From Asaia bogorensis (GTDB taxonomy: Bacteria > Pseudomonadota > Alphaproteobacteria > CACIAM-22H2), in the NCBI GenBank assembly GCA_945901855.1, contig CAMDLT010000021.1, forward strand, positions 764-64,763: 64,000 nt of DNA, read 5' to 3'. The first letter of the stretch is position 1. Each line of letters begins with the position of its first letter. The translations under genes were made by a program, and so were the position numbers. Positions 52,550-56,751 of this stretch are shown here, one piece after another. Below the pieces are notes generated by a model. That model did no database searches. It worked only from the letters and a program-made list of their open reading frames with translations, and had not been told where the DNA came from.

Positions 52550-53356
52550 ATGCGCATCGACCTAGGGTACGAAATAGTCTACGAATGCCCGCAAGCGACG
52601 CCGATGCTGCTGATGCTGCGCGTGCATCCCTCGCACGCCAACGCCCTGCAAAAGCCCGATTTCCTGCAAAGCGACCCGGCCGTCGACGTCGACACGTATC
52701 TCGACGGGTTCGGCAATCTGTGCAGCCGCGTGACGGCGCCCCAAGGCACCTTTCGCCTGTTCGCAAACGCCACCATCGAAATATCGAACGCCGCCGACAT
52801 CTACGCGCCCGAAGCGCCGCAATTGCCCGTGCAGCAATTGCCCGCAGAAGCGCTCGTCTATCTGCTCGGCAGCCGCTATTGCGAGACCGACAAACTTTCC
52901 GAGCAGGCGTGGGCCTTGTTCGGGCACACGCAGCTGGGATGGGCGCGGGTGCAGGCGATTTGCGACTACGTGCATCGCGCGGTGCGTTTCGACTACGCCA
53001 AAGCGCGCGCCACCAAATCGGCCTGCGAGGCGCTGTCGGAAGGCGTCGGCGTGTGCCGCGATTTTGCGCATGTGGCGGTCGCCTTTTGCCGCTGCATGAA
53101 TATTCGGGCCCGCTATTGCACGGGCTACCTTGGCGATATCGGCGTGCCCAGCGATCCGGCACCGATGGATTTCAGCGCCTGGTTCGAGGTCTATTTGGGC
53201 GGCCAATGGTATACGTTCGATGCGCGCCACAACCGGCCGCGCATCGGGCGCGTGCTGATGGGTCGCGGGCGCGACGCGGCCGACGTGCCGCTGTCGAACA
53301 GTTTCGGCCAAACGACGCTTAAGTCCTTCCGCGTGTGGACCGACGAAGCGCGCTAA
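52550..53356 (+). CDS. Transglutaminase-like superfamily protein
   Basis: N-terminal bact-transglutaminase-N-like region and catalytic core GVGVCRDFAHVAVAFCRCMNIRARYCTGY (Cys nucleophile). Confidence 0.8.
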   Translation: MRIDLGYEIVYECPQATPMLLMLRVHPSHANALQKPDFLQSDPAVDVDTYLDGFGNLCSRVTAPQGTFRLFANATIEISNAADIYAPEAPQLPVQQLPAEALVYLLGSRYCETDKLSEQAWALFGHTQLGWARVQAICDYVHRAVRFDYAKARATKSACEALSEGVGVCRDFAHVAVAFCRCMNIRARYCTGYLGDIGVPSDPAPMDFSAWFEVYLGGQWYTFDARHNRPRIGRVLMGRGRDAADVPLSNSFGQTTLKSFRVWTDEAR

Positions 53357-53393
53357 AGGGTTTGGCCCGAAGGCCGTGCAAACGGCACACGCT

Positions 53394-53816
53394 CTAGCGC
53401 GCGATCCAACTGCGTTCGGCAACGGCAACGCGAAGTCCCGGCACGCGCTTGAACTCGACCAGATTCGACGTCACGAAATCGGCGCCGCGCGCGACCGCTT
53501 GGCCTGCCAGCAGGATATCGACGGGCCCAATCGATTGGCCCTTGGCTTCGAGCGCCGCCCGGATGCGCGCAGCGGCAGCGGCATCGTCGGGTTCGAACGC
53601 GAGCGGCGGATTCGATACGACCAAAAACGCATCGAGCAACGCACGCGCTCGGGTCGGGTTCGCGCTCCGCTGGACGCCGACTTCGAGTTCGTATCGCACC
53701 AGAACCGAAAAACCGATCGCGAGGCCCGCATTCCGGGCAGCAGCATCAGAACGCTTTGCGCTGGCGCGCGCGCCCCTGCTTGGCGCGAGCCGGAAAGCCG
53801 CCGCCGATTTCATCAA
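53394..53816 (-). pseudogene. vapC: vapC-like PIN-domain toxin gene, apparently degraded (N-terminal catalytic region displaced into another frame)
   Basis: The C-terminal two-thirds matches VapC (…RIRAALEAKGQSIGPVDILLAGQAVARGADFVTSNLVEFKRVPGLRV). An ATG overlaps the vapB stop at 53746 in a different frame (listed ORF 53471..53746, MLLPGMRASRSVFRFWCDTNS...) and carries the DTN acidic motif. Only about 3 codons separate that motif from the point where the PIN-like frame resumes, so a deletion plus frameshift is likely. Confidence 0.5.
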
Positions 53817-53976
53817 GGCGCTCGAACAGATGTGTGGTATCGCAAACGACCGGCGTCAGCACAAGGCTGGCGCCGCTGCGCCTGACCCGCACTTCGCCCA
53901 CGTCGAAACGGAATTTCTTGGGCAACCGCACCGCCTGGCTGCTGCCGCTCATAGAAACTTTAGCTGTTTCGGCCAC
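53746..53976 (-). CDS. vapB: VapB-type antitoxin (AbrB/SpoVT-like swapped-hairpin)
   Basis: MSGSSQAVRLPKKFRFDVGEVRVRRSGASLVLTPV is the typical VapB N-terminal DNA-binding domain. GTG at 53976, or an ATG at 53952. Confidence 0.75.
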   Translation of the reverse strand: MAETAKVSMSGSSQAVRLPKKFRFDVGEVRVRRSGASLVLTPVVCDTTHLFERLDEIGGGFPARAKQGRARQRKAF

Positions 53977-53996
53977 GGGAGTTCACTCCCAAAAAA

Positions 53997-54015
53997 GATA
54001 TACAAAGAGTATATC
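53997..54015. promoter_or_regulatory. Perfect palindrome GATATAC-AAAGA-GTATATC immediately upstream of vapB (candidate VapB(C) autoregulatory operator)
   Basis: 7-5-7 inverted repeat read from the sequence. It lies 20-40 bp upstream of the vapB start on the minus strand. Confidence 0.5.
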
Positions 54016-54083
54016 TTATTGGTTGGCCCCAGGGTCAATTTGCCGGATCTTCGAAGGAGGCGAGTGTGGAGCTAACTTTTCGC

Positions 54084-54247
54084 TTACGCGGCCGATTTGA
54101 TGGACGGAGAGACGGAAACCTGTGTCGATTTCCGTTTACTCTTTTTGAAAGCAAACCAACCGCTCTTCAAGAACTCGTCCTTGCCCATCGCCATGATCGA
54201 ATCAAGACACGCCCTGTAGAGCTTTGCCGCTAAAATCTTGTCGTCCA
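54084..54247 (-). CDS. Small hypothetical protein (54 aa, basic C-terminus), below the ORF-track length cutoff
   Basis: Manual translation: MDDKILAAKLYRACLDSIMAMGKDEFLKSGWFAFKKSKRKSTQVSVSPSIKSAA. The ATG lies 10 nt after the stop of the 175-aa gene. GC is low, like the islet. The frame and length are from hand translation and need checking. Confidence 0.35.
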
Positions 54248-54257
54248 TATTTCCGCC

Positions 54258-54785
54258 TCAGGGTTCAAGATTTTCCAGGTGAAGCCAAGAGCCACGCACC
54301 GCAACAACGACCTCTGAAAGACTATCCTTAAGTCCCACCGCGATGCCGTGCGCTAGATCTTTTAGCTGTTTATCCTGAAGATAAACCTTAACATGGTTAG
54401 CTCGCATTTGACTCTTGCACAATTCTATGGATCGGTGCAACAGACTCGAAGCCAGCACCGCTAAACTATCAACTGAAACAGTCTCGTACTCATATAGTGG
54501 AGATCCGATAAACCATAATACTCTCAATGTTTTACCGGTTGTTCCTGGCAGTTCTGCGACATTGGCATGAAACATCCCATGGAAGTGCCCTGCTTGATCG
54601 CGAAGTACAAAAATACCGTACTTCTTGGGAGCTGGTACCTCCGAGGCGATTTTATGCGCATGCTCAAGCTGGGGGACTGCAAATGAGTTAGGGTCGTCTC
54701 CATACGCACGTACCCGCCCCTCCCACTCTGCTCGCAGAAGTTTAAAAAGGTCATTATCGACAGTAGCGCGCTCGACTACCAGCAT
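54258..54785 (-). CDS. Hypothetical protein (175 aa) in the low-GC islet, no recognisable family
   Basis: ATG at 54785 with a GGAGAAG RBS, and an AT-rich promoter-like region upstream. Local GC is about 40-50% against about 66% background. No motif of a known family recognised. Confidence 0.6.
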   Translation of the reverse strand: MLVVERATVDNDLFKLLRAEWEGRVRAYGDDPNSFAVPQLEHAHKIASEVPAPKKYGIFVLRDQAGHFHGMFHANVAELPGTTGKTLRVLWFIGSPLYEYETVSVDSLAVLASSLLHRSIELCKSQMRANHVKVYLQDKQLKDLAHGIAVGLKDSLSEVVVAVRGSWLHLENLEP

Positions 54786-54978
54786 AGTTCTTCTCCAAAA
54801 TACGCCTCACAGTTATAGAACTTTATATTGGTTATTTTCCAAAAGAGAAGTCTTTAAGTATGCTGCCTCTTAAAATCGAGAACTGTGGCTGCATTTGATT
54901 CTACGTCAAAGCGCCCTACGTTACCGTTGCAACTTCTGTGTCGGCCTTGAGAGAAAACTAGACTAATTTTTTCAAATC

Positions 54979-55377
54979 CTAGAATAAAACGGAATCGCCG
55001 GTCGCCACATGCCACCATTTGGGGCGCGTGCTGCGGAACGAATGCGCTGTCGGGCGCAGGGCCGCGGCGCCCGGTTTGTCGAAGACGCCGAGCAGCAAGG
55101 CCACAACCGGTTTGTCGTCGATCGCGCCGAGCGAGCTGCCGCAAACCTTGCAAAAAGCGCGGCTCGAAAAAGGCGACGAACGATAGGTGGCCGGTTTGCC
55201 GCCCTTGCCGGTCCACGCGACCGCATCGCGCGGGAATTCGACCCAAGCAAGCGTAAGGCCGCCCGTGTGGCGCTGGCACATGGTGCAAGAACAAGTATGC
55301 GGCTTGGCAGCGGGGCTTTTCGCTTCGAAGCGGATCGCGCCGCACAGGCAACCGCCGCTATACGTTTTTTCCGGCAT
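54979..55377 (-). CDS. GFA family protein (glutathione-dependent formaldehyde-activating / CENP-V zinc domain)
   Basis: GGCLCGAIRF...CSCTMCQRHTGG...CKVCGSSLG Cys ligand pattern, 132 aa. Confidence 0.8.
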   Translation of the reverse strand: MPEKTYSGGCLCGAIRFEAKSPAAKPHTCSCTMCQRHTGGLTLAWVEFPRDAVAWTGKGGKPATYRSSPFSSRAFCKVCGSSLGAIDDKPVVALLLGVFDKPGAAALRPTAHSFRSTRPKWWHVATGDSVLF

Positions 55378-55380
55378 GGA

Positions 55381-56751
55381 TCAGTTGGCGGGATCGTCGA
55401 AGATCGTCGGGGCGGGGCTTAACGTGCGCGCACCGTCGCGCGCGATTTCCAGCACGGCAAATCCGCGCTCGACCGCGCCGTTGGCGCGCAGACGAAAAAC
55501 GCCTTCGATGCCCGCAAACCCGGCGGGCGTGCCCAAGGCTGCCAGCGAATAATCGGCGCCCTCGGGACCTTTGCCGCGCGCCAAAATTGCGGCGAGCGCC
55601 ACCGCCTCGTAGGCAAGCGTCGCGACGCGCGGGGGGGCGCGGCCAAACGCATCGCGGTAGCGGCGCTCGAAATCCTGCCGGGCGGCGGGCGGCGGGGCCG
55701 CAAACCATGCCCCTTGCAGCGAGGATTCGCGCATCAAGCGCGCGTCTTCCCACAGCGGAATGCCCAGATACTTGATGCGGACCGGATCGATTTCGTGGCC
55801 GTGCAGCTGGGCCACGAGCTGCACCAGACGGTCGCCGAAATCGGGCAGCAGCACGGCTTCGAAATCGAGTTCGGGCGGCGGCGGCGCCACTTCGCCGCGC
55901 GCCAAACGCGGCGGCGGTCCAGCCAGCTGGCCCAAGCGGCGCACGGCAGGCGCGTAGTCGAGGGCGGACGGCTCGTAGCGTTCGACGCGCACGAGCGTGC
56001 CGCCATGCGCCGCAAGGCTGGCGCGCAGCGCCTGTTCGGCCGCCTGGCCAAGCCCGTTATTGGGCACGAGGGCGGCGAAGCGCTCCAGCCCCCGGTCGCG
56101 CGCGAACTCGATGACCCGCGCAACCGCCGCTTGCGGCGCGAGCCCCAGCGCAAAAATGCCAGGGGCTTCGATCGTGCGGTCGTTGGATAGGCTCAAGACC
56201 GGCACGCCGGCCGCGCGCATGGCAGGCGCGATCGCCTGCGCTTCGCCGCCGAGCAGCGGGCCCACCACAAGCGCGGCTTGTTGTTCGAGCGCCCATTCGG
56301 CGGCAAGTGCTGCCCCTTGGGGCGTTCCGCCGGTGTCGCGGACCAGCAGCACAAAATCGTCGTCGGCAACGTCGAACACCGCTTGCGTCGCCGCATCGAG
56401 CAACGCCTGGCCGACGGCCGCATTGGCGCCCGACAGCGGCAGCAACAGCGCCACGCGCGGCATCATTCGCACGTCGCTCTGCGACGCTGGCACAGGTGCG
56501 GCTGGAATCGCATCGACGCGCAACGCCGGTTGCGGCGCCGCGCTGGCGGGCACGTCGGCTGGCAGCGGCTCGGCGCGAATCGGCGGGCCGGAGGCGAGGG
56601 TCGGTGCCGCCGGGGGCGGCACGATACGCGGCTGAGCAGGCTGGCTCTCGCGGAAAAGGCCCGTTACGCTCTCGCGCAAATTTCCGCCCGACTGGCAGGC
56701 CGCCAGCACGGGCATCAGCAGCGCAAGAACGGGCACAAAAATGGGACGCAA
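55381..56751 (-). CDS. Periplasmic-binding-fold lipoprotein (LpoA/YraM-like penicillin-binding-protein activator candidate; Peripla_BP_6 fold)
   Basis: Lipoprotein signal MRPIFVPVLALLMPVLAAC|Q, a Pro/Ala-rich linker, then an LivJ-like binding fold. Divergent from rsmI as in the E. coli yraL/yraM arrangement. Confidence 0.55.
   Translation of the reverse strand: MRPIFVPVLALLMPVLAACQSGGNLRESVTGLFRESQPAQPRIVPPPAAPTLASGPPIRAEPLPADVPASAAPQPALRVDAIPAAPVPASQSDVRMMPRVALLLPLSGANAAVGQALLDAATQAVFDVADDDFVLLVRDTGGTPQGAALAAEWALEQQAALVVGPLLGGEAQAIAPAMRAAGVPVLSLSNDRTIEAPGIFALGLAPQAAVARVIEFARDRGLERFAALVPNNGLGQAAEQALRASLAAHGGTLVRVERYEPSALDYAPAVRRLGQLAGPPPRLARGEVAPPPPELDFEAVLLPDFGDRLVQLVAQLHGHEIDPVRIKYLGIPLWEDARLMRESSLQGAWFAAPPPAARQDFERRYRDAFGRAPPRVATLAYEAVALAAILARGKGPEGADYSLAALGTPAGFAGIEGVFRLRANGAVERGFAVLEIARDGARTLSPAPTIFDDPAN

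Follow-up and report, generated by a model that had tools for sequence, protein, structure and literature searches.

We analyzed a cassette of two small genes in a stretch of 64,000 nucleotides (nt) from Asaia bogorensis (assembly GCA_945901855.1, contig CAMDLT010000021.1; this whole stretch is referred to as the window). The cassette is located upstream of vapB and a remnant of vapC, and comprises a large gene and a small gene downstream of it (Table 1). All four genes, the vapC-like open reading frame (ORF) included, lie on the minus strand, as reported in a preliminary description of the locus. That description had also placed the basic small ORF 10 nt downstream of the large one; the ORF, its basic character and the close spacing hold, but the gap between the large-gene stop and the small-gene start is 9 nt. 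A GAGG motif overlaps the large-gene stop, and GGAG is found 7 nt 5' of the large-gene ATG. A strong ribosome-binding site (RBS) and an AT-rich promoter of its own had been ascribed to the large gene. The ORF, the GGAG and the AT-rich upstream spacer are in place, whereas a sigma-70 consensus scan of positions 53300-55400 gave no match that would mark a promoter. A scan against Rfam returned only a sub-threshold YrlA (Y RNA-like) match at 55168-55275 on the minus strand, inside the GFA coding sequence, which was taken as chance (24.9 bits versus a gathering score of 69, E value 0.019).

Table 1 Features of the cassette and of the adjacent vapBC locus (window positions; aa, amino acids; GC, guanine plus cytosine; pI, isoelectric point)
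Feature	Positions	Strand	Description	Basis
Inserted segment (cassette)	54057..54989	no strand	933 nt	BLASTN of the window versus L121-L127
Large gene	54258-54785	-	175 aa, acidic (pI 6.5) protein of predicted GNAT fold, proposed effector	ORF list
Small gene	54084-54248	-	54 aa, basic (pI 9.8), ends ...IKSAA, proposed labile inhibitor	Homologous partners in all loci examined
AT-rich spacer 5' of large gene	54786..54978	-	193 nt, 38% GC	Promoter presumed
vapB promoter/operator	53992..54038	-	Resident; -35-like TTGACC and palindrome	Conserved in L120 and L121
vapB	53746..53976	-	76 aa, AbrB/MazE-type antitoxin, intact, GTG start, resident	NCBIfam VapB (5.9e-17), Pfam MazE_antitoxin
vapC pseudogene	53394..53746	-		PIN/VapC profile matches and comparison with intact relatives
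PIN-like ORF	53394-53816	-		ORF list

The insertion between GFA and vapB

The inserted segment has a GC content of 46.5%, compared to 65.2% for the whole window. Across the window, 1-kb windows had a mean GC content of 65.3% (standard deviation 3.2%), and values below 57% occurred nowhere except in those overlapping 53.5-55.5 kb, where the minimum was 46.7%. The GC content at third codon positions (GC3) was 0.44 in the 175-aa gene versus 0.72-0.80 in eight nearby genes (vapB, the vapC remnant, GFA, the transglutaminase-like gene, aroE, LppC, rsmI and the SDR gene). The low-GC islet of the preliminary description (53977-54978 in its limits; 46.6% GC) is thus the sole such dip in the window, and the deviation is evident quantitatively in both GC and GC3.

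Seven contigs (L121-L127), which were retrieved by exact look-up of a VapB from the same 90% identity cluster, contain this site without the cassette, in flanks that are 95-97% identical to the window at the nucleotide level. The gene order in the longer contigs is rsmI - LppC - GFA - (142 nt) - vapB - vapC - transglutaminase - aroE - SDR, and its GFA - vapB - vapC core recurs in the shorter ones; but for the cassette, the gene order of the window is the same. BLASTN homology to these contigs ends at window position 54990, in the last GFA codons, and restarts at 54056. The 933 nt of the window stand in place of 74 nt of the ancestral GFA-vapB spacer, with boundaries accurate to about 10 nt. 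At its left end the insertion reaches into the last GFA codons, and the GFA protein ends with ...GDSVLF in the window versus ...GDSGF otherwise. Because the site is empty in relatives of 95-97% identity, we conclude that the cassette was acquired by horizontal transfer, as had been supposed, and that it is a 0.93-kb bicistronic insertion in the GFA-vapB spacer.

Neither a target-site duplication nor the flanking direct repeats considered in the preliminary description were found at the junction sequences. An integron cassette was rejected, as neither an attC-like site nor a neighbouring integrase gene was seen (inspection by eye only). The islet DNA had no match among PLSDB plasmids and GenBank phages, and with the transglutaminase gene as anchor for a synteny comparison across GTDB genomes, the best relative was only 72% identical and non-syntenic.

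The cassette-free relatives contain direct repeats that bracket GFA (window 55378-55444 and about 54040-54064; L121 4883-4949). A 67-nt copy (87% identical) of the junction between the LppC 3' end and the region upstream of GFA recurs just downstream of GFA. This second copy extends into the -35 box of vapB, and its left part was lost in the window through the cassette insertion. The repeats suggest either that a duplication brought in GFA itself or that GFA gave rise to one, and also that the GFA-vapB spacer is prone to recombination.

Proteins identical to those of the window are encoded on two contigs from metagenome run ERR3719139 (L091 and L092). L091 is identical to the window in DNA sequence along the aligned stretch, including the 193-nt upstream spacer. 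Both contigs terminate within the cassette, L092 at about window position 54121 and L091 at about 54665, and fragments of the large protein with 98% and 92% identity occur in other samples. The contig breaks and the near-identical fragments possibly reflect strain heterogeneity at the site, or a drop in coverage at the low-GC insert.

The paired genes, their distribution and the predicted fold of the large protein

A word-indexed homology search with the 175-aa protein found nothing, and the exact protein was absent from the collection. An exhaustive phmmer search of 1.84 billion representatives retrieved 129 relatives at E values up to 1e-3 and 69 at E values up to 1e-10, nearly all of them 170-190 aa long and matching end to end. 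Loci with enough downstream sequence to be judged came from genomes of Shinella, Agrobacterium, Aliiroseovarius, Paracoccus and Rhizobium, from nine IMG/VR contigs and fifteen metagenome contigs, and from the closest relatives, L118 and L120. In all 29 of these loci, an ORF of 41-54 aa in the orientation of the large gene is found 2-93 nt downstream of it, a count that includes related contigs (L081-83, L084/85/93, L087/88, L100/114 and L101/116 are near-duplicates). A strong terminator, composed of a GC-rich hairpin and a T-run, is located directly after the partner gene in the other loci whose downstream sequence was inspected.

The 54-aa protein of the window is clearly homologous to the partner encoded in the nearest relative, whose large protein is 50% identical; the two share the pattern AKL(Y/F)xACLxxIxxMGxxEFxKxxWFxxKKS...SPxxxKxAA. 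In the partner alignment (A5), G22, F32, A53 and A54 are invariant, and the pattern common to the partners is helix - G - x3 - F/L - K - x - T/S - S/G - x - F. A profile search yielded 68 partner proteins, all of them 41-65 aa long, unfused, and without a name or a Pfam domain. The only Pfam match of the partner at E values up to 10 was a chance one to AAA_lid, and no locus was retrieved when the identical 54-aa protein (P0252) was queried by exact look-up. The partners are mostly basic (pI 8-10) and not hydrophobic, and no recognizable nucleic-acid-binding or membrane motif was found in them. Among 71 database sequences, 66 end with AA and 4 with VA, and KKAA is the ending of 46. The tail before the Ala-Ala end varies in length and sequence.

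Pairwise identities of the large and the small proteins were correlated (r = 0.76, 300 pairwise comparisons). The ratio of nonsynonymous to synonymous substitution rates (dN/dS) was 0.07-0.09 for the small gene; for the large gene, dN was 0.08-0.47 and dS was saturated. As judged from these rates, both cassette genes are under purifying selection, also in the isolated copies. The pair is a strictly co-conserved and co-diverging unit that travels together. Its genes are adjacent, co-oriented and co-conserved, and they move as a unit, as is generally the case for the genes of toxin-antitoxin (TA) modules. The tightly coupled pair of the preliminary description is a genuine cassette, the partner being present in all 29 loci and both genes having a dN/dS far below 1. 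The 54-aa ORF, whose lack of conservation would have spoken against that description, is a conserved gene.

In the closest full-length relative (large protein 50% identical), an extra ORF of 63 aa stands 37 nt 5' of the cassette (L117 1495-1686; L118 and L119 86-277). It encodes a Lys/Pro-rich protein (MAKAKATPTPTPKAPKLEFEPDAWERF...KAKKKAAKRA) with no Pfam hit, which may act in that branch as a third component or as a regulator.

All hosts with names are Alphaproteobacteria (Rhizobiales/Hyphomicrobiales, Rhodobacterales and Sphingomonadales). For the window, the GFA cluster contains names that suggest a Rhodospirillales/Roseomonas-like genome. The GC content of the cassette was lower than that of the host in 7 of 7 further loci measured within host flanks (0.45-0.53 versus 0.56-0.65). 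The genomic context varies by genus, and the upstream genes differ in every locus. The cassette was found in a prophage early region with GapR, cI/Cro-like helix-turn-helix proteins, PDDEXK and ERF; adjoining portal, protease, capsid, HNH and TerL genes; on viral contigs beside S24 repressor, Rha/Bro, DUF5131 or SNase genes, with nine IMG/VR contigs carrying it; and isolated among housekeeping genes in L086 and L087. One subfamily is located precisely between terL and the portal gene of an HK97-type head module (L114 1018-5571; L099 2156-4796), where an S78 prohead protease gene follows and the partners are of the type MxKFDEAKA...FVRTLSFFPSA...KKAA. This locus belongs to either a prophage or a cluster resembling a gene transfer agent (GTA). 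The cassette thus occupies prophage accessory (“moron”) positions and small chromosomal islets across the Alphaproteobacteria. It is mobile and frequently located in prophages, and it does not represent a housekeeping family with conserved synteny. The cassette was absent from GenBank phage records and PLSDB plasmids (tblastn with the window protein and P0134). A single-protein scan of metagenome contigs and a scan of viral contigs with the profile of alignment A3 detected no close relatives; in some scans, the divergence within A1 and A3 was too high.

The large protein had no hit in Pfam and NCBIfam and no meaningful hit among the PHROGs. Sequence searches of the PDB found nothing, and the same applied to a profile search at E values up to 10. 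The Pfam acetyltransferase model (Acetyltransf) was matched by 0 of 88 family members at E values up to 1. In the family alignment (A1), W21 and W167 are invariant, N75, R88, P96 and G165 are conserved in 90% or more of the sequences, and a C-terminal RGxWLH motif is found. AlphaFold2, supplied with an alignment of the relatives found in this analysis, predicted the structure with a mean predicted local distance difference test score (pLDDT) of 96.6 and a predicted template modeling score (pTM) of 0.90; this model was used in place of the poor single-sequence model (pLDDT 49). In the predicted model, the order of elements is beta1-alpha1-alpha2-beta2-beta3-beta4-alpha3-beta5-alpha4-beta6(-beta7) with splayed strands beta4 and beta5, which is the GNAT topology. 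Foldseek searches against the PDB and BFVD also agreed with GNAT proteins, at template modeling scores of about 0.4-0.55. Among the matches in BFVD were phage GNAT-fold proteins of several kinds; the matches included the T7-like “internal virion protein A” and “host specificity protein A”. We are confident, on the basis of this model, that the large protein represents a highly divergent, previously unclassified family of GNAT-fold proteins. The earlier statement that neither protein belongs to a recognizable family is correct for Pfam, NCBIfam, PADLOC and PHROGs, but not for the fold predicted here for the large protein.

Possible functions of the cassette

The known systems that most resemble the cassette include the type II TA systems composed of a GNAT toxin and a ribbon-helix-helix (RHH) antitoxin, such as TacAT, AtaRT, KacAT and ItaRT. 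These systems also consist of two small co-oriented genes, one of them for a GNAT-fold protein of about 175 aa, and are likewise mobile and associated with prophages. In TacAT, a C-terminal peptide of the antitoxin lies in the active site of the toxin (title of PDB entry 7ak9), which makes it a plausible analogue of the tail of the cassette partner. However, the large protein shares only 7-14% identity with these toxins, their Pfam Acetyltransf model fits 0 of the 88 family members, and the cassette has no Q/RxxGxG/A loop, carries the effector gene first and encodes an acidic large protein. Its partner gene lies downstream, and the partner is a protein of 41-54 aa that has no RHH or DUF1778 domain and has a near-invariant Ala-Ala C-terminus. 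The cassette is therefore not filed with the GNAT/RHH systems: fold and layout are similar, but their defining features are lacking. A module of the GNAT type with a small downstream partner was not described in the literature that our searches covered. By its inferred function, the pair would be a two-gene TA-like module with a GNAT-fold effector; it is built from two unclassified protein families and is absent from PADLOC v2, Pfam, NCBIfam and the PHROGs with a function.

How such a module might work is suggested by the C-terminus of the partner. Tags added by ssrA end in -LAA or -VAA, and the MuA C-terminus recognized by ClpX is RRKKAI; the common KKAA ending of the partners resembles both. 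A labile partner is proposed because 66 of the 71 partners end in AA, which is a ClpXP-type signature in Alphaproteobacteria. In Caulobacter, a C-terminal Ala-Ala is described as typical of ClpXP substrates (NstA; PMC4470285), and it is the degradation signal of CtrA, which is stabilized by a swap to Asp-Asp (PMC12421884). The partner shares with CtrA, NstA and ssrA-tagged proteins the -Ala-Ala-COOH end, often after basic residues, on a protein whose amount would have to be regulated; the rest of the partner is unrelated, and the likeness is one of motif alone. Our tentative proposal, which we regard as quite possibly correct, is that the cassette is an addiction module of TA-like type or an abortive-infection module, in which the small protein serves as a labile inhibitor. 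The small protein would bind and restrain the GNAT-fold effector, perhaps with its conserved C-terminal tail placed in the substrate cleft between beta4 and beta5, as the tail of TacA is placed in TacT, and ClpXP would keep it short-lived via the Ala-Ala degron. If synthesis of the small protein stopped, either through loss of the element or through phage shut-off of the host, the effector would be freed. It could then modify a cellular or phage target by acyl transfer and arrest growth or phage development.

Several observations weigh against a module with a labile inhibitor. The gene order places the effector first. The partner has no DNA-binding domain recognizable by Pfam at E values up to 10, and neither protein matched PADLOC-DB v2 at E values up to 1. 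After beta4, the family contains LAPxYDFxD in place of the canonical acetyl-CoA loop Q/R-x-x-G-x-G/A (motif A, which binds pyrophosphate and lies between beta4 and alpha3), and the family consensus at this position, TLRxxWxxLAPxYDxxxxxxxxxA, has no conserved glycines (the absence of motif A rests on inspection of the alignment alongside the predicted secondary structure). Given the replaced cofactor loop, catalysis by the large protein appears uncertain. The large proteins are acidic (pI 4.7-6.5), in contrast to tRNA-binding GNAT toxins, which stop translation by acetylating aminoacyl-tRNA; this speaks indirectly against tRNA binding. Finally, the invariant C-terminal dipeptide is stricter than most antitoxin degrons and could be a substrate or docking element.

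One rival reading is an enzyme with its dedicated substrate or cofactor. The GNAT-fold protein may modify the small protein, for example by acylating a conserved Lys of the ...K-K-A-A tail, or may use it as an activating subunit. Such a pair, without being self-toxic, would serve prophages in an accessory role such as anti-defence or host takeover. The strict co-occurrence and co-divergence, the near-invariant K-x-A-A-COOH tail and the combination of an acidic enzyme with a basic partner are all consistent with this, as are the sites inside phage head modules and early regions and the several kinds of phage GNAT-fold proteins in BFVD. We nevertheless regard an enzyme-substrate relationship as unlikely, though worth serious consideration, since the cassette is also found by itself in chromosomes, away from any phage genes (the window, L086 and L087), since its own terminator and its polymorphism between near-identical strains better suit a selfish or defence module, and since the acetyl-CoA loop is absent. 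The distribution of charge raises the question of polarity, because in classical type II pairs the toxin is usually the basic member, and here a basic small protein (pI 8-10) is combined with an acidic large one. The small protein could be the harmful component and the GNAT-fold protein could neutralize it by sequestering or chemically modifying it, as in type VII TA systems. Alternatively, the small protein could act on the large one like SocA on SocB, binding it and handing it over to ClpXP in trans by means of the Ala-Ala tail. In SocAB, a type VI TA system of Caulobacter, the toxin is a ClpXP substrate and the antitoxin is the adaptor. Like SocAB, the cassette is a two-gene module of Alphaproteobacteria whose partners are proposed to be kept in balance by ClpXP, but no sequence or fold relation was found, and it is the toxin that is degraded in SocAB. 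A reversed polarity or an adaptor role would agree with the ClpXP-type C-terminus and with an enzyme-like partner lacking the standard cofactor loop. Both seem rather improbable to us, as the small protein is not hydrophobic and shows no recognizable nucleic-acid-binding or membrane motif, as a degron on a toxin yields no addiction logic, and as literature searches turned up no precedent for a GNAT-fold antitoxin.

The subfamily located exactly between terL and portal genes in HK97-type head modules, together with the matches in BFVD to the T7-like “internal virion protein A” and “host specificity protein A”, could mean that the two proteins are virion or assembly accessory proteins of phages or GTAs, with a stranded prophage remnant in the window. 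This is very unlikely, because the insertion in the window is 933 nt long with precise junctions and contains no other phage DNA, the copies in L086 and L087 are equally isolated, other prophages carry the cassette in the early/immunity region or outside the head module in opposite orientation, and both genes are under apparent purifying selection in the isolated copies. An ordinary resident housekeeping pair, or spurious ORFs in an AT-rich spacer, might be suspected from the absence of the exact 175-aa protein from the word-indexed collection and from the fact that its function is not known. This explanation is refuted by the empty site in the nearest relatives, the 129 family representatives of matching length, the AlphaFold2 pLDDT of 96.6, the dN/dS far below 1 and the neighbourhood that differs in every genus. 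A further and more speculative possibility, which we consider improbable when its parts are taken jointly, is a non-classical two-protein device, whose working part would be the near-invariant ...K-K-A-A-COOH tail of a protein of about 45 residues. The tail would act as the substrate or a substrate-mimicking plug of a cofactor-divergent GNAT-fold enzyme, or as a ClpXP degron acting in trans, by which the lifetime of the enzyme would be set. Alphaproteobacterial prophages and GTA-like elements would thereby sense or exploit the proteolytic state of the host, and two arrivals beside vapB with loss of vapC (see below) would point to a functional link to AbrB-type regulators.

If the proposal of a labile inhibitor is true, the cassette represents an uncatalogued TA or defence family, which is confined to Alphaproteobacteria among the named hosts, is carried as an accessory gene pair of prophages and combines a GNAT effector too divergent for sequence methods with a partner that has a built-in ClpXP-type degron. 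It would also be a compact and testable model of a mobile module armed through protease-controlled stability, from the clade whose ClpXP biology is best understood (Caulobacter, Agrobacterium, Rhizobium). Candidate two-gene modules are numerous. In this strain-variable 1-kb islet, the fold, the conserved partner and the insertion history could be assigned from sequence data alone, which is of interest for the fields of TA systems, phage defence and alphaproteobacterial proteolysis. The two families, the large one with 129 representatives and the small one with 68 database hits in addition to those from the loci, merit curation.

The resident vapBC locus and the probable arrivals beside vapB

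The vapBC genes next to the cassette lie outside the insertion, and neither cassette protein is related to VapB or VapC. The host-like GC content of vapBC and the core-gene-like synonymous divergence of vapB (75% identity at 4-fold degenerate sites between the window and L120, see below) indicate that vapBC is resident. The neighbour is a bona fide AbrB-type vapB with a conserved promoter and palindrome. The degraded state of the module noted earlier is confirmed in that vapB is intact and vapC was hit by a deletion. Compared to intact relatives, 70 nt are missing between direct repeats (ATGCTGCTGC). The deletion takes out codons 1-23 (MLLLDTNVCIDILRGKRPEIRKHY), including the aspartate of the LLDTN motif, and shifts the frame, and the PIN match of the remnant begins only at about position 25-36 (Pfam, NCBIfam and solved VapC chains). 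In the cassette-free contigs L121-L127, vapC is intact (140 aa, MLLLDTNVCI...). The pair in the window is not a functional vapBC, since VapC is frameshifted and has lost its catalytic Asp.

A -35-like TTGACC box is located at 54033-54038, and a palindrome, AAGATATAC-TCTTT-GTATATCTT, lies inside 53992-54020 between this box and the vapB RBS. It is followed by a T-run and then by a small hairpin over the vapB RBS. The perfect 7-5-7 palindrome that had been assigned to the vapB promoter is thus real and correctly assigned, but it is longer than stated. The TTGACC box and a GTATAT half-site are kept 5' of vapB in the cassette-free relatives and in the more distant L120. Because they are present in cassette-free relatives, the palindrome and the AT-rich 80 nt before vapB are resident and lie outside the insertion; the preliminary description, in which the islet started at about 53980, had wrongly counted these 80 nt as part of it. 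The AT-rich hairpin and T-run at 53991-54017 were considered as a terminator of the cassette and rejected, as they are found before vapB in cassette-free relatives and in L120, but they could still terminate read-through.

L120 is a genus-level relative, whose GFA, LppC and RsmI proteins are 87%, 80% and 71% identical to those of the window and whose cassette proteins are 74% and 67% identical. Here the cassette is located downstream of vapB, at the place of vapC, which is gone. At 4-fold degenerate sites of conserved residues, the cassettes of the window and L120 were 28% identical, which corresponds to saturation, whereas vapB, GFA, LppC and RsmI were 60-75% identical. That the window and L120 had both inherited the cassette vertically from their common ancestor was considered and rejected, given the saturated cassette between unsaturated flanks and the empty site in the nearest relatives. 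The saturated synonymous sites of the cassette, taken together with the empty site in the nearest relatives, suggest that it arrived twice independently next to a resident vapB, with loss of the PIN toxin each time. Faster synonymous change in low-GC genes is a less likely alternative.

In both genomes with the cassette beside vapB, vapC is dead or absent and vapB is intact (window 53394-53976; L120 5138-6165). The cassette is located upstream of vapB in the window and downstream of it in L120, and the seven cassette-free contigs keep vapC (L121 5001-5653). The loss of vapC together with the presence of the cassette may be a coincidence, with two lineages on one side and one on the other, or may reflect a functional or selective link to the AbrB-type VapB. 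Another TA locus was observed in L087 (1-508; GCA_900472395.1), where a nucleotidyltransferase pair of the MNT/HepT type is located about 4.5 kb from the cassette, in the same chromosomal stretch as the housekeeping genes.

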